Made by a program: the position numbers and the translations under genes. This document shows positions 27,715 to 33,510 of a DNA stretch of 64,000 nucleotides, piece after piece. The notes under the pieces are model-generated. The model saw nothing but the letters and a program-made list of their open reading frames with translations, made no database searches and was not told where the DNA came from. Within the stretch, counting starts at the first letter, position 1. Every line of letters begins with the position of its first letter. Location of the stretch: positions 28,027 to 92,026 of the IMG/VR virus record IMGVR_UViG_3300046740_000431. The stretch is one strand, 5' to 3'. Source of the stretch: a virus.

Positions 27715-28104
27715 TCACGCCTCGCCTCGGATCTCTCGGAGCTTGACCTCGAGCTTGGCGCGATGCTCGTAAGCTTCGGCGATCCGCTCCTCGATGGTCG
27801 CTCGAGCGGTCTCCAGCCGGACGATGTCAGCGCTGATTGCGTCGCGCGCCTCACGAACCGCCGCCGCCTCGGAGATGTTCTCCTCTGACCTGCCCGGCGC
27901 CGGCCGCGCCATCGAGACCGCATCGGTGATCCGCGGCACGAGCGAGCTGGACTTCGCCTTGGTCAGGACGTGGCCGACGGCGGCGTGCGAGGTCCCGGCC
28001 GCTCGCGCGACGTCGGCGATCGAGAGGCCGGCGTCCTTCATCCTCGCGATGACGCTCGAGCGCCACTCCTCGGTGACCGGGTGATCGGAGATCGCGTGGA
28101 TCAC
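27715..28104 (-). CDS. XRE-family HTH regulator
   Basis: GLSIADVARAAGTSHAAVGHVL plus C-terminal coiled coil. Confidence 0.75.
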   Translation of the reverse strand: MIHAISDHPVTEEWRSSVIARMKDAGLSIADVARAAGTSHAAVGHVLTKAKSSSLVPRITDAVSMARPAPGRSEENISEAAAVREARDAISADIVRLETARATIEERIAEAYEHRAKLEVKLREIRGEA

Positions 28105-28640
28105 GTTGACCTCGCCGTGAACGTGTACGCGTGGACCATCGGGTTGTTCTCGACCTGGTCAGGCCATCGGTGAATCGTGTCCCACGCGGCAAGGTAGGAC
28201 GCCTGCGGGTCCTCGTGGGAGACGCCCGCGAGGTGAGCGCAGCGGAAGATCTCGGCGCCGTCGAGCTGGCCGTCGATGACCTCGATGCCCTCAGCCCACG
28301 CGTCGGACGCGGTGATCTCGCGGAGCCGCTGGGTGCGGACCTCGGCGATCGTGATGTGGTACCGCGCCGCCCACCCCGGCATGAACAGCGGGATACGCCA
28401 CTTCCGCTGCGTCGGATCGGCCGTCCCGTCGTCCTGGTCCTGTCGGTAGAGCACGGCGCCGCGCTCCTCTTGGTACAGGTACTCGTTGCCGCCGACGTAG
28501 TCCCACGCCTCCTTCGCGTAAAGCGTCTCGCCTACCTTGTAGCGCGGAGACGCGCCGTTCTTGGCCACTCGCCTGGTCTGCGTCTTCACCCGGCGCTTGA
28601 GCCCGAGGATCGACTCGGCCGTGAAGATGATGCCCTTCAC
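28101..28640 (-). CDS. ASCH/PUA-like phage protein
   Basis: KTQTRR, GETLYAKEAW, W..PLFMP..AAR....I..VR.QRL..IT..DA.AEG, NP.V. Confidence 0.78.
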   Translation of the reverse strand: MKGIIFTAESILGLKRRVKTQTRRVAKNGASPRYKVGETLYAKEAWDYVGGNEYLYQEERGAVLYRQDQDDGTADPTQRKWRIPLFMPGWAARYHITIAEVRTQRLREITASDAWAEGIEVIDGQLDGAEIFRCAHLAGVSHEDPQASYLAAWDTIHRWPDQVENNPMVHAYTFTARST

Positions 28641-28924
28641 GGCAACCCCATGGCGTCGGCGATCAGGTTGCCGAGGAGAGCACGGCTGTAGCGATCAGCG
28701 ATCGTCGTGACCGCCGGCCGCGTAGAGCACCCGGCGCATGTCTCAGGCGCGGCGCAGACGGCGGTTGCCTGCGCGCCGGTGGTCGCGGCGACGTGGCGGA
28801 CGATCTCGTCCACGAACAGCTGGCGCTTGAGCTTCCTCCGCGGTCTCGAGATCGCGCGCTTCTCGCGCTGCTCGCGGAGCGCGATGGCCCGAGCGGCGGT
28901 CTCCTTGCTGGTGGACCGGCGCAT
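28637..28924 (-). CDS. hypothetical protein
   Basis: Coupled at both ends. Confidence 0.45.
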   Translation of the reverse strand: MRRSTSKETAARAIALREQREKRAISRPRRKLKRQLFVDEIVRHVAATTGAQATAVCAAPETCAGCSTRPAVTTIADRYSRALLGNLIADAMGLP

Positions 28925-29436
28925 CAGATCCGCACCTGCGCGGCGACAGCGAGCTCGACATCAGGCGGCAACGTCCAGAAGCCGAGCGCGCCGCGGCACG
29001 GCACCGGCTTGGCCAGCGCGCGGACGTCGCGCAGTACGTAGCCGACTGGGCCGAAGAACCACCGGCGCTGCTCGCCGAGGTGGCGATCGATCTCGTTTGC
29101 GAGCAGACCGGTCGAGTCGAACACGATGCTGTCGATCGTGGCGACCGCGATCACCGCGCTGGTGATGCGGGACAGCCGGTACCACCGTTGCCACTCGGTC
29201 TGCTCTGGATCTCCCCATCCATGAAACATCCGGTTCGCCTCGGTGGGGCCATCGGAGACGCCGACGATCTCCTTGATGCGATCGTAGACCGACTCGTCGA
29301 TCTCGCGGCTCGCGTGGATCGCGAACGGCTTCCCGAAGTCGACCGCATTGATCATTTTACGCGGGCGGTTCTCGACCAGCTTCACCGAAGAGGCCACCAA
29401 GCCGGCCCATGGTTGCGTTAGCGTCAGCGCCCTCAT
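28924..29436 (-). CDS. ASCH domain protein
   Basis: MRALTLTQPWA.LV....KLVENR, AIHAS, WFFGP.GYVL, CRGALGFW. Confidence 0.88.
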   Translation of the reverse strand: MRALTLTQPWAGLVASSVKLVENRPRKMINAVDFGKPFAIHASREIDESVYDRIKEIVGVSDGPTEANRMFHGWGDPEQTEWQRWYRLSRITSAVIAVATIDSIVFDSTGLLANEIDRHLGEQRRWFFGPVGYVLRDVRALAKPVPCRGALGFWTLPPDVELAVAAQVRI

Positions 29437-30098
29437 CGCGAGCTCTCCTGAAGATATTTGATTGCCGAGCGCAAGTGTACGACGTCGTCTCGGAATACTC
29501 CGATTCCGGTGTTGCACCGGTAGCATAGGAGACCGCGAACGATGCCGGTGACGTGATCGTGATCCACGTGAAACCGACGCGGTGACTCGGTGGATAGGAG
29601 TCGGCAGATCGCGCACCGACCTCCCTGATTGACGAGCATCTCGTCGTATCGCTCGATGGTGAGTCCGAATTTCTTACGAAGGTGATGTCCCCAGCGCTGT
29701 CGATCCCACTCCTTGGGGTGCTGGGCAGCCCACGCCTTCGACTTCGCGGTCACGCACCTCTTGCAGATGTTTCCAGCTTCCTTGCCAGCGCTCATTTCGC
29801 CAGGAAGCTTGACATCGCAGCACACGCGGCATGTCGTGCGTGCCGCTTCGCGTAGAGGATTCAGGTGATCCGACCGGTAAGCGACGCGCGCGGCTCGCTT
29901 GGTATCCGCCGGCTCACTTCGCACCCATCCACAGGAACAAGCTACACGCAGACCGCCTGGTGGCGCACGGCGTGAAACAGTGAACTCACCGATCGACGTG
30001 TACGACATCGCGTGACCAGCTAGCACGACCGGACCAAGCGGCTTGATGCCGCTTGCCACGATCCCGGCCCACGGCTGGGTCAGCGTGAGCGCGCGCAT
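29433..30098 (-). CDS. endonuclease VII-family (His-Me finger) putative homing endonuclease, in frame with an ASCH 5' fragment
   Basis: YDEML..QGGRCAIC, HVDHDH.TG.VRGLLC..CNTGIG, AIKYL; visibly lower GC; alternative start at ATG 30008. Confidence 0.9.
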   Translation of the reverse strand: MRALTLTQPWAGIVASGIKPLGPVVLAGHAMSYTSIGEFTVSRRAPPGGLRVACSCGWVRSEPADTKRAARVAYRSDHLNPLREAARTTCRVCCDVKLPGEMSAGKEAGNICKRCVTAKSKAWAAQHPKEWDRQRWGHHLRKKFGLTIERYDEMLVNQGGRCAICRLLSTESPRRFHVDHDHVTGIVRGLLCYRCNTGIGVFRDDVVHLRSAIKYLQESSR

Positions 30099-30505
30099 CA
30101 CGCAGCCTCTGGAAGTCGGTAGGTCCCAGGGGCGCCGGGCTCCATCAGGCGAGCCAGGCTACGGAGCGCGCATACCGTGGTGTGCGGCCTGAGCTGCGCC
30201 GTGTAGTCGTGCAGCCAGATCGCGCCGTTCACGAGCATGACGCGGCAGAACAGGCAGAAGACGTCGACGCGTTCCGGGGTCCCGACGATCCGTGCGGTGT
30301 CCGGGTTTCCGTCGTAGAACAGCCACGCCGAAGATGCCGGGCAGCCGCGGTGCTTGAACCTGTAGTCCTGCAGCGCGAGCGCAACCAAATCCATGATCTC
30401 GGCGTCGCGCGGGTTGGCGCGCCCGCTGGATACCAGGTCGAGCGCGGTGATCGCGTGCGGTCGAGCGCGCTCGATCGCACCCTGCCTTGTTCGCGCGCCC
30501 TTCAC
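30098..30505 (-). CDS. hypothetical protein
   Basis: Coupled at both ends. Confidence 0.5.
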   Translation of the reverse strand: MKGARTRQGAIERARPHAITALDLVSSGRANPRDAEIMDLVALALQDYRFKHRGCPASSAWLFYDGNPDTARIVGTPERVDVFCLFCRVMLVNGAIWLHDYTAQLRPHTTVCALRSLARLMEPGAPGTYRLPEAA

Positions 30506-31569
30506 GCTTCCACCTCTGGGAACTCGAGGTGCTGGACGCCGTCGAGGTACGGCATCTCCACGACGCCGCCAGGCTTCCTCTTGGACCCGCTGCCGACCAG
30601 CACCGTGCATAGACCACCGCTGTCGTCTGACCGCGATCCCTCTTCGGTCATCTGCTTCAGGAAGAACGCGGTGCCCGTATGCTTACACTGGTTTCGTAGC
30701 CACCTGACCCACAGCGAATCGAGCGGCCTCGCCGCTGCGCCGCTCTCGCACCCGACAATGACCCAGCCGATCCCGTCAGGGTGTAGCCAGTGCCCGTAGG
30801 AGCGTTCGGCATCGCACTCGACGCACCACGGCGTCGCGCCATCGTCGGCAACGCACCATTCGGCTGGTCCGTGGTTCCGGTCGTCGCAGCGCGGCAGGTC
30901 GAGATCGACCTCGCCGAGCAGCGGCTCACAGCTCAGGAACCGAACTGCGGCCGGCGTCGCGAGAAGGTCTGGGATGCGCTCCTCGGCGGCGTCCTGGTTC
31001 TCAACCGAGACGCCGAGCCATACGTTAGGCAGCGGCCACCCGTTGTCGAGGCCACGACTTGGGATTGAGTCCACGACACCGTCGAGTGCATATAGTGCGG
31101 CGTTCTCGATTAGCTCTCTCGGTGGCAAAGCCGGCCTCGCAAGCAGAGCGCGCCCGGTCGGGTTCGCCCACGCGAACCACTCGCGCATCCGCTTCGGGCG
31201 CTTCGTGAGCACCTGGAAGGTGTGCTGCGGACAGGCCGCCATGACCCCGAATACGGCGGCGATCTGCTCGTTCGTGAACGCGTCGAAGAACAGGTCGCTC
31301 ATCGAGTCGACGAAGATTTTGCGCGGTGCCCGCCATCGCAGCGGCATAGCTAGCGCGTCGGTGTCAAACAGCCCCTCTCCGGTCCAACACGGGTCGCCGC
31401 CTGGCCCGAGCTTCACTAGGCTGTCGTACTTCGTGGGTTTGCCCTTGGCCATGCGCACGATCCGAGCGGCCTGGTGCTTCGCGTAGCAGTTGCGACACCC
31501 AGGCGAGACCTGCGCGCACCCCTTCGTAGGGTTCCACGTCTCGCCGGTCCAGGAGATCTTCGTCGGCAT
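30502..31569 (-). CDS. DUF5131 (phage Gp37/Gp68) radical-SAM-like protein
   Basis: ISWT..TWNP..GC..VSPGC.NCYA, SMSDLF, FQVLTKRP, NVWLGVSVENQ, FLSCEPLL, WVIVG.ESG. Confidence 0.92.
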   Translation of the reverse strand: MPTKISWTGETWNPTKGCAQVSPGCRNCYAKHQAARIVRMAKGKPTKYDSLVKLGPGGDPCWTGEGLFDTDALAMPLRWRAPRKIFVDSMSDLFFDAFTNEQIAAVFGVMAACPQHTFQVLTKRPKRMREWFAWANPTGRALLARPALPPRELIENAALYALDGVVDSIPSRGLDNGWPLPNVWLGVSVENQDAAEERIPDLLATPAAVRFLSCEPLLGEVDLDLPRCDDRNHGPAEWCVADDGATPWCVECDAERSYGHWLHPDGIGWVIVGCESGAAARPLDSLWVRWLRNQCKHTGTAFFLKQMTEEGSRSDDSGGLCTVLVGSGSKRKPGGVVEMPYLDGVQHLEFPEVEA

Positions 31570-31900
31570 CAGTCCTGCTCCCTGACTACCTGCCTGCAGC
31601 AGTCGCACCTTTGCTCAACTCCGATGGTAGCTACCGTTCTTTCGTCGAAAAGAACCACCAACCGAACCGACCGGATCCAGAGATCCGGATCGGGATCCGG
31701 CGGCGAGAACTCGACGATCACGCGCCTGGGGTCGTCCCAGAACTCGGTGTCACCGATCGTCACGAGCGACTTCGGATCTTGGCGGTATCGATCACTCGCG
31801 ATCGACATGGCGACGTCGAGCGACGGGATTCCGCGCATGGTCGCGCTGTATCCGTCGTGCAAGTAGAAGGTCTGGAACCTGATCATCAGTCCTGCTCCCT
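31567..31900. repeat. 17-bp direct repeat flanking one gene
   Basis: CATCAGTCCTGCTCCCT at 31567-31583 and 31884-31900. Confidence 0.9.
31569..31886 (-). CDS. hypothetical protein (candidate inserted gene)
   Basis: 105 aa between the direct repeats, TGATG-coupled on both sides. Confidence 0.55.
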   Translation of the reverse strand: MIRFQTFYLHDGYSATMRGIPSLDVAMSIASDRYRQDPKSLVTIGDTEFWDDPRRVIVEFSPPDPDPDLWIRSVRLVVLFDERTVATIGVEQRCDCCRQVVREQD

Positions 31901-32883: not shown

Positions 32884-33510
32884 CTACAGCAGCGCCTCCT
32901 GCGCGGACGGCCTGGGCGGAGACCAGACCCCGAGGCCGAGCATCGTCTCGAGCACCCACGCCTCGTGGGCGTGGACCTGGCGGGCGTGGATGACCACCCC
33001 AGTCCACCCCTTCTGGGCAGCGTAGACCTTCGAGATCTTGGTGACCGTGAACTGAGAATCGTCCTCTGCGAGCGCTCCGGTGAGCCCGTCCGCGACGGCG
33101 CGGGCGATCTTGTCGTCGTCCGGCTTCACCGTGGGGAACAGCATCCGCTTGCCGTCGGCGGACAGATCGCCGCCAGTGGTCCAGTGTCCGCCCGGCCTCG
33201 CCAGCACGAACACCATCGCGAGCGATACGGCGCCAGGACGAGCGACCAGTCGCTGCGCGGCGGCGTTACGCGCGCTGATCGACCTGACGCGGATCAGCGC
33301 CTGCCACGCCTCGAGCTCCTTGCCGCCCTGGTCGGTCACGGAGACCCCGACGATGGTTCCGCCGAAGCACGAGCGTCCGCGGCACGACTTCCCTGGCTTG
33401 CAGTCGCTGCACTTGCCGCGTGCGATCGGAAACCCGGACATGTTGCCCTTGGCGACCGGGGTGCCCTCGACCACGAACCGGACGTCGAGCATGGACGGAG
33501 GCGTCGTCAC
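32884..33510 (-). CDS. rusA: RusA-family Holliday junction resolvase
   Basis: G.PV.KG, KPDDDKIARAVADGL, DDSQ....K.YA. Confidence 0.85.
   Translation of the reverse strand: MTTPPSMLDVRFVVEGTPVAKGNMSGFPIARGKCSDCKPGKSCRGRSCFGGTIVGVSVTDQGGKELEAWQALIRVRSISARNAAAQRLVARPGAVSLAMVFVLARPGGHWTTGGDLSADGKRMLFPTVKPDDDKIARAVADGLTGALAEDDSQFTVTKISKVYAAQKGWTGVVIHARQVHAHEAWVLETMLGLGVWSPPRPSAQEALL

Follow-up and report, generated by a model that had tools for sequence, protein, structure and literature searches.

A putative homing endonuclease cassette with a replacement gene start in an ASCH-domain gene of a phage

In the 64,000-nucleotide stretch of viral DNA analysed here (the window), an Endo VII-motif nuclease gene is flanked by two copies of the beginning of an ASCH-domain gene. 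We consider that the locus probably represents a free-standing homing endonuclease cassette which brought a donor-derived replacement 5' end with it and now sits between ASCH codons 19 and 20. An earlier sequence-only reading of this DNA had arrived at essentially this interpretation, and the analysis reported below supports it.

Results

Anatomy of the locus

The elements of the locus, all on the minus strand, are the following.

30098..30610, minus: upstream gene of about 170 amino acids, assigned to no family; its TGA stop (30100-30098) overlaps the leader ATG as TGATG
30106..30110, minus: Shine-Dalgarno-like AGAGG, 7 nt before the leader ATG (read from the sequence)
30042..30098, minus: leader, taken as the original first 19 ASCH codons, now the N-terminus of the nuclease ORF (sequence)
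29380..30041, minus: 662-bp insert relative to an uninterrupted allele (repeat spacing; junction read from the sequence)
29433..30041, minus: nuclease body, amino acids 20-221 plus stop (Pfam, composition, alignment, AF2 model)
29448..29687, minus: complete Endo VII catalytic motif, CxxC, DHDH, R, CxxC-N (Pfam PF02945)
29445..29448, minus: GGAG ribosome site of the restored ASCH gene, 8 nt before its ATG (read from the sequence)
29380..29436, minus: replacement 5' end, codons 1-19 of the working ASCH gene including its ATG (sequence)
28924..29436, minus: intact ASCH-domain gene, 170 amino acids plus stop (alignment, profile searches, fold)

The first 19 codons of the 221-amino-acid ORF at 30098-29436 (minus strand) are an ASCH N-terminus and the remainder is an Endo VII-motif nuclease, an in-frame fusion that had been claimed from the sequence and is borne out by the Pfam match (PF02945, ORF residues 138-217, E 1.2e-24, 86.5 bits). 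The stop of this ORF, ending at 29433, overlaps the start of the intact ASCH gene as ATGA. At the other end, the stop of the upstream gene overlaps the leader ATG and therefore hands translation on to the leader; a homologue of this upstream gene was absent beside every other ASCH locus examined. Judging from the sequence, the AGAGG before the leader is the resident ASCH start signal, now serving the nuclease. The 662-bp insert comprises the nuclease body together with a replacement ribosome site, start and 19 codons, the GGAG lying within the final codons of the nuclease ORF, as it also does in the related loci L106 and L291 described below. We infer the boundaries of the insert, including its right-hand end, and the direction of transfer from these sequence relationships. 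The insertion point falls within the ASCH signature motif GxKxxExR, in which K19, E22 and R24 are invariant. No Rfam family was found at E up to 1 in 28700-30400, so that no intron was detected, and the downstream ASCH ORF is by itself a complete gene that can be aligned over its full length with uninterrupted homologues; for these reasons the nuclease is not of the intron- or intein-borne kind.

The identification of the downstream gene as ASCH proved correct by predicted fold, although the Pfam ASCH model stayed below significance on the 170-amino-acid protein. Its AF2 model (pLDDT 84.6) matched the TRIP4 ASCH domain in Foldseek (E 7.5e-9, TM 0.67-0.79), followed by EOLA1 and ZmASCH, and in a PDB profile search the best nine matches (E 0.0017-0.043), as well as all thirteen listed, were ASCH proteins. 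Megablast of the region against phage GenBank records returned no match, and phage records searched by tblastn with the ASCH protein yielded at best 28% identity. Within the ASCH protein, loop 57-92 resembles P0002 and P0003 while loop 106-124 resembles P0004, P0006 and P0007; this mosaic possibly marks the end of a co-conversion tract, but we do not count it as evidence because loops are generally shuffled in the ASCH family.

The two gene starts differ in DNA but hardly in protein

The two 57-nt start copies, 662 nt apart, differ at 19 of 57 nucleotides yet at only three residues; 16 of the 19 residues are identical and nine of those codons are spelled differently, precisely as the sequence-only reading had described them, coordinates included. 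A repeat finder recovered the pair independently as a 61-nt direct repeat with 662-nt spacing. Since it extended upstream of the start codons, we considered whether the 17 nt before both ATGs belong to the duplication and did not adopt this, only about 10/17 positions matching; these matches centre on the ribosome site and so may reflect convergence. Were the 19 substitutions random, about 11 residues should change, and three or fewer changes occurred in 0 of 200,000 trials (P<5e-6 under neutral change), so the pattern of the pair is far beyond chance. The start pair of L106 behaves likewise, with one of 19 residues changed for 18 nucleotide changes (P<5e-6). Thus, in the window as in L106, an endonuclease ORF is flanked by a duplicated gene terminus, the two copies having diverged in DNA while their protein sequence is conserved. 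Having diverged under protein-level constraint, both copies must for the greater part of that time have belonged to working genes.

Beside the junction, 8 of the 9 nucleotides of codons 16-18 differ between leader and replacement start, and the longest identical run between the two starts is 8 nt. Each copy resembles other phages' alleles at least as much as it does its partner: the leader matches eight uninterrupted alleles that belong to its own subfamily and come from other phages and MAGs at 42-49 of 57 nucleotides as against 38/57 for the partner copy, and the downstream copy matches the same eight at 37-42/57, all relatives with readable DNA being at most 60% identical in protein. The replacement start had been called recoded; it is indeed differently spelled, but this is most simply natural divergence between donor and recipient alleles rather than special recoding. 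Next to the junction, the ASSVK spelling is shared with other alleles (P0015 and P0033) and, as far as these sequences indicate, need not be an immunity adaptation. In the AF2 model of the nuclease, leader residues 1-23 are unstructured (pLDDT below 50).

The nuclease is a compositional outlier and the leader is not

The nuclease has a GC3 of 0.644 against 0.75-0.92 in six flanking genes, and its counterparts in L106 (0.56 versus 0.80) and L291 (0.32 versus 0.46-0.63) are outliers as well. Of the 19 leader codons, 18 have G or C in third position (GC3 0.947), like the genome; 12 would be expected at nuclease style (binomial P about 0.003, p=0.644). The replacement start, with 15 of 19 G/C-ending codons, is indistinguishable from either genome style (ASCH gene, 0.86) or nuclease style (0.64). 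The proposed contrast in composition thus holds for the genome-like upstream copy, but the lower-GC style ascribed to the downstream copy is not significant in the window. It is significant in L106, where the downstream start has a GC3 of 7/20 as against 0.80 in the upstream gene. Low overall G+C over 29175-29436 was also considered as a foreign tract reaching into the ASCH body; GC3 there is 0.80-0.90, the low G+C being due to second codon positions, and we rejected this candidate.

The nuclease resembles sequence-specific endonucleases rather than resolvases

From its N-terminus, the nuclease comprises a GH...CxCGW...H module followed by a Cys4 zinc ribbon and a helical linker, and it ends in the Endo VII (beta-beta-alpha-Me) core. 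Across 25 family members C162/C165, D179, H180, H182, R188, C192/C195 and N196 are invariant; in the Endo VII motif such residues make up a zinc site plus a His-Me active site (PMC6083498). The N-terminal module and zinc ribbon, which define a separate, large subfamily, fold confidently in the AF2 model. Foldseek matched only the catalytic core, weakly (Hpy99I, E 4e-3), and returned no match for the N-terminal module. The closest solved relative is the sequence-specific restriction enzyme Hpy99I, followed by T4 Endo VII with a match of only about 50 residues. The motif is C-terminal, ending four residues before the stop, and in a published tree a C-terminal motif characterizes the homing and restriction endonuclease clade and an N-terminal one the resolvases (PMC6083498); by that rule of motif position the window nuclease would fit the endonuclease clade. 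The same phage has a separate RusA resolvase (window 33007-33255). Given the C-terminal motif, the presence of RusA and the short match to T4 Endo VII, we do not regard the enzyme as a T4 Endo VII-type resolvase.

Uninterrupted alleles are the rule and the nuclease recurs upstream of ASCH genes

The sequence-only reading had predicted relatives without the insert, and these exist in numbers: 111 of 112 ASCH loci are uninterrupted, namely 32/32 in bacterial genomes or MAGs and 79/80 in IMG/VR, a set that excludes the window's own record and whose sole nuclease-bearing member is L291. In all uninterrupted loci K19 runs directly into the motif [L/R]-V/I-E-N-R. The closest uninterrupted allele with readable DNA, L121, is 60% identical in protein, and no near-identical genome without the 662 bp was found among the ASCH loci examined. 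Two full paralogous ASCH genes, the arrangement that the same reading had set against its own proposal, were seen in no relative.

The same nuclease family lies directly upstream of ASCH genes in L106, L291 and L118, and also occurs in proteins P0122-P0125 and P0244. A search of metagenome contigs for the adjacency at the DNA level gave 17 matches, only L106 and L118 being real. The nuclease is always immediately upstream of the ASCH gene, the genes upstream of the nuclease being different. Conversely, three scans of 177 IMG/VR Endo VII loci found an ASCH neighbour at none (0/177); linkage to ASCH is therefore a feature of this lineage and not of Endo VII genes at large.

The unit of old start plus Endo VII recurs in proteins P0123, P0124 and P0244, and together with L106 these provide the further cases of a nuclease with a differently spelled start that the sequence-only reading had anticipated. 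Its claim that the nuclease uses the start signals of its target also held: the leader is fused in frame in the window, P0123 and P0124, and in L106, whose ASCH and nuclease proteins are only 31% and 38% identical to those of the window, the old start is kept as a 25-codon mini-ORF that is stop/start coupled to the nuclease. L291 carries the nuclease without the old start, P0125 is a single, leaderless nuclease-ASCH fusion ORF, P0124 is without the whole N-terminal module, and L118 retains a decayed nuclease stub beside a full-length (contig-truncated) ASCH reading frame. The hallmarks of homing genes are thus present: patchy presence, foreign composition and decayed copies.

The ASCH-side junction is constant, at codon 19-21 in all instances. 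On the nuclease side it lies 8 residues before the GH motif in the window and P0122, 2-3 residues before it in P0123 and P0244, at the zinc ribbon in P0124 and, in L106, 17 nt upstream of the nuclease's own ATG. With nucleases 59% identical, the window and P0122 still share their junction, which is therefore itself old. The leader of P0122 keeps 7 of 19 residues, and those of P0123 and P0244 differ at 5 of 13 residues with nucleases 82% identical; leaders thus appear to decay where they are old, and the near-perfect leader in the window therefore points to recent origin or recent refreshment. Nuclease and ASCH identities co-vary across instances, which would also fit long vertical co-inheritance with little recent homing.

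Proposed mechanism and alternatives

According to our proposal, an enzyme of the Endo VII-motif ('DHHRN', F-CphI-like) kind would cut ASCH alleles that lack the nuclease, either at codon 20 or no more than a few bases away, inside GxKxxExR, the most conserved stretch of the gene. The constant ASCH-side junction at codons 19-21 lends this putative site-specific cleavage indirect support. Repair of the break from a nuclease-bearing genome would copy the nuclease together with the donor's ribosome site, start codon and first 19-20 ASCH codons, possibly more, and would leave the recipient's own first 19 codons stranded upstream as the leader. The nuclease would then take over the ribosome site and ATG of the leader, in the window as an in-frame fusion, and ASCH would be translated from the imported start through the ATGA overlap, so that the tightly coupled operon would stay intact. 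The two starts would accordingly derive from different alleles, alike in protein yet 19/57 nt apart. As a result of this divergence, neither junction would keep an entire uninterrupted target, which would confer self-immunity, and deletion through recombination between the starts should be hindered. The decayed stub in L118 would fit the usual life cycle of a homing gene.

We put forward more tentatively, as a reading that may well fall short, that the leader-bearing form is a self-contained cassette: with both homology arms in one short conserved segment, the leader on the left and the ASCH body on the right, it could hop between phages sharing only the ASCH gene, use the victim's ribosome site and start, and rebuild the gene from the imported start. 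If so, the constant ASCH-side junction and the nuclease-side junctions, of which there are at least three or four, would record repeated one-sided repair at the cut site, and the position at which an uncharacterised endonuclease cleaves could be mapped from sequence alone.

It appears unlikely to us that leader and nuclease are instead one old travelling unit that landed just upstream of a resident ASCH gene and left it intact, in which case the downstream start would be native and the leader a relic of an earlier host gene. Such a unit would account for the junction geometry that P0122 shares with the window at 59% nuclease identity, which implies a junction inherited with the nuclease, and it agrees with the genome-like downstream copy and ASCH body (GC3 0.79-0.90) and with leaderless L291 and P0125, in which the nuclease sits upstream of an untouched ASCH gene. 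However, the codon style of the window leader is that of the genome (18/19 versus 12 expected) and its protein is near consensus, whereas long-travelling leaders decay, as in P0122 and P0244; moreover, in L106 it is the downstream copy that is non-resident (GC3 7/20 versus 0.80). A hybrid, in which the junction is mobile and most of the leader is renewed by a crossover whenever homing takes place, reconciles most of these observations.

We consider it quite improbable that nuclease and ASCH form a functional two-gene module, for example in nucleic-acid processing, with the leader as a scar of module exchange in a conserved 5' region and the nuclease no agent of mobility. Strict adjacency with translational coupling in four loci, the single fusion ORF of P0125, the co-varying identities and the fact that solved TRIP4 ASCH structures among the top fold matches are complexes with dsDNA all speak for such a module; against it stand the absence of the nuclease from 111 of 112 other ASCH loci, the outlying composition of the nuclease, the decayed stub of L118 beside a full-length (contig-truncated) ASCH frame, P0124 with its N-terminal module missing, and a motif arrangement that is that of a published endonuclease clade (PMC6083498). 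We attach very little probability to an in-place tandem duplication of the start followed by slow divergence, the nuclease having been acquired separately, or to the Endo VII protein being the phage's Holliday-junction resolvase. The start pair is a direct repeat flanking the nuclease, but its copies are about as far apart as alleles of different phages and yet keep their protein, unlike a non-functional duplicate, and the same layout recurs in unrelated contexts; and while resolvase is a common annotation for phage Endo VII genes, this phage has RusA, and the Endo VII motif is C-terminal here but N-terminal in resolvases.

Discussion

The usual view is that a homing endonuclease can spare its target gene only with the help of an intron, an intein or an intergenic gap. 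The homing cassette that we propose would represent a third route in phages, in which the nuclease arrives with a second gene start and is itself translated from the old one; in a limited literature search we found no published phage example of such a spare-start cassette. The arrangement would explain why phage annotations contain short orphan copies of gene N-termini and odd 'fusion' ORFs, suggests co-conversion tracts as one origin of mosaic phage genes, and yields for a large uncharacterised Endo VII subfamily the concrete prediction of a cut inside the ASCH GxKxxExR motif.

The free-standing Seg and Mob endonucleases of T4 (SegF, SegG, MobE), encoded between or beside other genes, cut nearby in alleles that lack them and carry out intronless homing by break repair with co-conversion of flanking markers, and leaderless L291 and P0125 look exactly like such intronless homing genes beside their target. 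For both homology arms the T4 elements depend on synteny, and they are not known to leave a duplicated gene start; the leader-bearing form, in contrast, has both arms inside one gene. Insertion of an endonuclease gene can also split a phage gene, as T4 mobA does with gene 39/60. Another such case, reported in PMC3045599, is mobE in nrdA of Aeh1. These insertions share with the window an endonuclease gene inside a phage coding sequence whose function is retained, but gene 39/60 and Aeh1 nrdA are left as two reassembling pieces, whereas ASCH is rebuilt as one intact ORF.

By motif and arrangement, the window nuclease may be likened to F-CphI of cyanophage S-PM2 and its 'DHHRN' family (PMC6083498): the motif is the same (CxxC, DHDH, R, CxxC-N) and likewise C-terminal, and F-CphI too is a free-standing phage gene beside its presumed target. 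Unlike at the F-CphI locus, there is no intron at the window locus as judged by Rfam, and the nuclease carries a duplicate of a gene start as well as an N-terminal GH...CxCGW module and zinc ribbon.

The closest parallel in layout comes from fungal mitochondria, where mORFs make 'gene hybrids' in atp6 of Allomyces macrogynus and in atp6, atp9, cox2 and nad3 of Glomus sp., the native and inserted copies being about 64-81% identical in DNA and 91-100% in protein (PMC3630166). As in those hybrids, an endonuclease ORF lies in a protein-coding gene without intron or intein, brings a foreign gene end and strands the native remnant. In Allomyces and Glomus the native copy was matched to a near-identical relative; here the closest readable allele has 60% protein identity. 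The enzyme is of the Endo VII-motif type in a phage genome, as opposed to LAGLIDADG or GIY-YIG. In mORFs it is the 3' end that is duplicated and the remnant is an untranslated tail, whereas here the 5' end is duplicated, with ribosome site, start and 19 codons, and the remnant supplies translation initiation to the endonuclease. By this analogy, the window cassette would mirror the mORF gene hybrids of mitochondria, linking phage biology to these elements.

Two differently spelled ASCH starts around the nuclease gene

In the window, which derives from a 92-kb IMG/VR virus record, the nuclease gene stands in a chain of minus-strand genes.

30610-30098, minus: upstream gene, ~170 aa, no known family
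30098 (ATG) to 29435-29433 (stop), minus: 221-aa ORF, ASCH leader (30098-30042) fused to nuclease
29436-28924, minus: intact 170-aa ASCH gene, opening with the replacement start (29436-29380)
between the intact ASCH gene and the next gene listed, minus: 95-aa gene
28101-28640, minus: second, distantly ASCH-like gene, 179 aa, phrog_874, with an N-terminal G-x-K-x-x-T-x-R-like motif

Through a TGATG overlap, the upstream gene's stop runs into the ATG of the 221-aa ORF; that ORF's stop likewise shares bases with the ATG of the 170-aa ASCH gene (ATGA), and stop/start coupling is retained at both sides of the insert. All five genes from the upstream gene to the second ASCH-like gene are chained through TGATG or ATGA overlaps (27715-30610, minus). 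As listed, the upstream-gene ORF (30098-30610) and a DUF5131 ORF (30502-31608) overlap by ~109 nt (30502-30610), and the true start of the upstream gene probably lies further downstream.

The sequence-only reading held that the ASCH N-terminus is present twice in different spellings, and this was confirmed. Leader and replacement start agree in 16 of 19 residues, nine of which are spelled with different codons; 19 of the 57 bases differ, 12 of these at third codon positions, and no identical stretch exceeds 8 nt. A repeat finder recovered the pair independently at a spacing of 662 nt. When 19 substitutions were placed randomly, ~11 residue changes were expected, and three or fewer were seen in none of 200,000 trials. 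Thus, the duplicated ASCH start is real, and chance is excluded.

Compared with eight uninterrupted alleles of the same subfamily from other phages and MAGs, the leader shares 42-49 of 57 bases and the replacement start 37-42, against 38 between the two copies, which are therefore no closer to each other than are alleles of different phages. The differences between them are nearly all synonymous, so until recently both copies evolved within working genes. Such a pattern would be expected of one start from the recipient and one from the donor. Duplication of the gene start in place, an alternative that we considered, is hard to reconcile with near-purely synonymous, allele-level divergence.

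The target ASCH gene and its uninterrupted relatives

Although the 170-aa protein had no significant Pfam match, a family profile search of the PDB matched ASCH proteins only, and its AF2 model (pLDDT 84.6) matched the TRIP4 ASCH domain (E 7.5e-9). At E<=0.001 the family has 597 members, almost every one 150-200 aa long. It is best conserved in its N-terminal 26 residues, where the GxKxxExR signature shows no variation at K19, E22 and R24. The insert junction falls within this signature, between K19 and residue 20.

The ASCH gene is itself a mosaic: its loop 57-92 is 83-92% identical to the homologues P0002 and P0003 and at most 33% to all others, whereas loop 106-124 is 58-63% identical to P0004, P0006, P0007 and P0013 and 11-16% to P0002 and P0003. 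This places a recombination breakpoint between residues 92 and 106; it could mark the end of a co-conversion tract, yet loops are shuffled family-wide. The second ASCH-like gene lies two genes downstream of the targeted one, and such a pair also occurs in contig L005 (4001-4510 and 5514-6263).

Relatives without the insert had been predicted and were found: all 32 ASCH loci from bacterial genomes and MAGs are uninterrupted, with no Endo VII within 3 kb, and 79 of 80 IMG/VR loci are uninterrupted and without Endo VII. Among these recovered loci we found no near-identical empty allele of the window locus. The best bacterial-genome matches to the ASCH gene (at most 60% protein identity) are mostly Kofleriaceae and Haliangiales MAGs (Myxococcota; L121, L123, L125, L126), and there are hints that the host of this 69% G+C phage is a myxobacterial lineage.

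The nuclease

In the 221-aa ORF, Pfam Endonuclease_7 was recognised at residues 138-217 (E 1.2e-24), and the ORF also matches several PHROG 'endonuclease VII' families. The Endo VII motif, whose residue roles are described in PMC6083498, is complete (two CxxC pairs, DHDH, R, N) and invariant in 25 relatives. It is C-terminal, a placement that in the published tree (PMC6083498) goes with the homing/restriction clade and not with the resolvases. Among solved sequences, the restriction enzyme Hpy99I is nearest, followed by T4 Endo VII. Since the same phage encodes a RusA-family Holliday-junction resolvase ~3 kb away (33007-33255, minus; PF05866, 27.2 bits, above cut-off), the Endo VII protein is not needed as its resolvase.

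A GH...CxCGW...H module and a Cys4 ribbon precede the nuclease core and together mark a large subfamily. Leaderless members start 2-10 residues ahead of the GH motif; the window nuclease has 27 residues there, 19 of them ASCH peptide. Its AF2 model is confident from residue 27 on (mean pLDDT 87), with residues 1-23 unstructured.

Nuclease relatives beside ASCH genes

The expectation that a nuclease with a recoded start would occur elsewhere was borne out by L106, a soil or peat metagenome contig. There, an upstream gene leads through ATGA into a 25-codon mini-ORF, consisting of ASCH codons 1-20 followed by five others, the stop of which overlaps the nuclease's own ATG (ATGA); the full ASCH gene's start in turn overlaps the nuclease stop (GTGA). 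Leader and new start differ in 18 of 60 bases but only one residue; the codons are different at 13 of the 18 residues counted as identical. The 60-kb viral contig L291 carries a free-standing nuclease without a leader, at 57% identity to the L106 enzyme; its neighbours are an unrelated 85-aa gene and the ASCH gene, and it overlaps each through ATGA. Contig L118 retains only the last ~35 nuclease codons directly ahead of the ASCH gene; at L118:231-701 a transposase-like ORF (231-587) occupies the expected place of the Endo VII gene body. This stub may be a homing gene destroyed by IS insertion, or an assembly chimera.

Further homologues are known from protein sequences alone (P0122-P0125 and P0244). 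P0123 and P0244 carry an N-terminal ASCH leader in which decay has begun; in P0124 the leader is joined directly to the zinc ribbon, without the N-terminal module; P0122 has the window's geometry with a leader decayed to 7/19 residues; and P0125 is leaderless but fused to an entire ASCH domain. Read in another frame, the C-terminal ends of P0123 and P0124 would give an ASCH start, from which we infer an overlapping downstream ASCH start. Across 177 other IMG/VR Endo VII loci, no ASCH neighbour occurred, indicating that the link is specific to this nuclease lineage.

On the ASCH side, the junction directly follows K19 in two cases (the window, P0124) and codon 20 in two others (P0123, L106), a spread of ~four bases; on the nuclease side it differs among all four.

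Base composition of the two copies

Table. GC3 per segment in three loci
Window: flanking genes 0.75-0.92; leader 18/19 (0.947); nuclease 0.644; replacement start 15/19 (0.789); ASCH body 0.80-0.90
L106: upstream gene 0.80; leader 14/20; nuclease 0.56; replacement start 7/20; ASCH body 0.61
L291: flanking genes 0.46-0.63; no leader; nuclease 0.32; ASCH start 0.53; ASCH body 0.52

The leader had been described as genome-like in codon style and the replacement start as nuclease-like. In the window the first part held, as 18 of 19 G/C-ending codons would be improbable at the nuclease's GC3 rate (binomial P ~0.003); on the second, the replacement start's 15 of 19 is uninformative. In L106 most of the ASCH gene probably belongs to the imported tract, and in L291 the nuclease is the sole GC3 outlier.

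A candidate history of the cassette

Recurrence, composition and copy divergence support, with caveats, the earlier proposal of a mobile endonuclease that takes a gene's start signals and rebuilds the gene. Judged from sequence, the simplest history is homing with a donor-derived start, in which cleavage, fusion expression and mobility are predicted. Ancestrally, a free-standing endonuclease just upstream of the ASCH gene, as in L291 and P0125, would have cut nuclease-free ASCH alleles within the conserved motif. In a recipient that had the ASCH gene in common but a different gene upstream of it, homology would have allowed repair of the break on its right side, copying the donor's ASCH 5' end and nuclease, while illegitimate joining of the left end would have stranded recipient codons 1-19/20 ahead of the nuclease. 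Such repair would yield a fixed ASCH-side and a varying nuclease-side junction.

Once leader-bearing, the unit would have both homology arms inside the ASCH gene and no longer require synteny. The leader would be refreshed by crossovers within it at each homing event, would decay in lineages that stop moving (P0122, P0244), and may supply ribosome site and ATG to the nuclease through fusion or termination-reinitiation. The GGAG for the rebuilt ASCH gene sits in the nuclease's last codons. Neither window junction keeps the full uninterrupted target sequence, and in codons 16-18 the rebuilt gene differs from the leader in 8 of 9 bases; these altered junctions would fit self-immunity, but other alleles share this peptide spelling, which leaves self-immunity a conjecture. 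Nuclease and ASCH identities co-vary across instances, so that vertical inheritance may account for much of the history. The recurring junctions provide a precise, cheap experimental prediction, which is the main source of interest.

Comparison with known systems

A limited literature search returned no published example of a duplicated replacement gene end in phages. The closest described system appears to be the mORF 'gene hybrid' of mitochondria. There, the C-terminus of atp6, atp9, cox2 or nad3 is replaced by a foreign one imported along with an endonuclease ORF, and the native end is left stranded; DNA identity between native and inserted copies is 64-81%, protein identity 91-100% (PMC3630166). 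Whereas those hybrids replace the 3' gene end, the window cassette would be the mirror image, replacing the 5' end; unlike them, it is phage-borne and encodes an Endo VII-motif enzyme, with the added twist that the stranded piece would drive the nuclease's own translation. The nuclease's motif places it in the F-CphI-defined family (PMC6083498), and its leaderless relatives (L291, P0125) resemble the T4 Seg and Mob 'intronless homing' genes.
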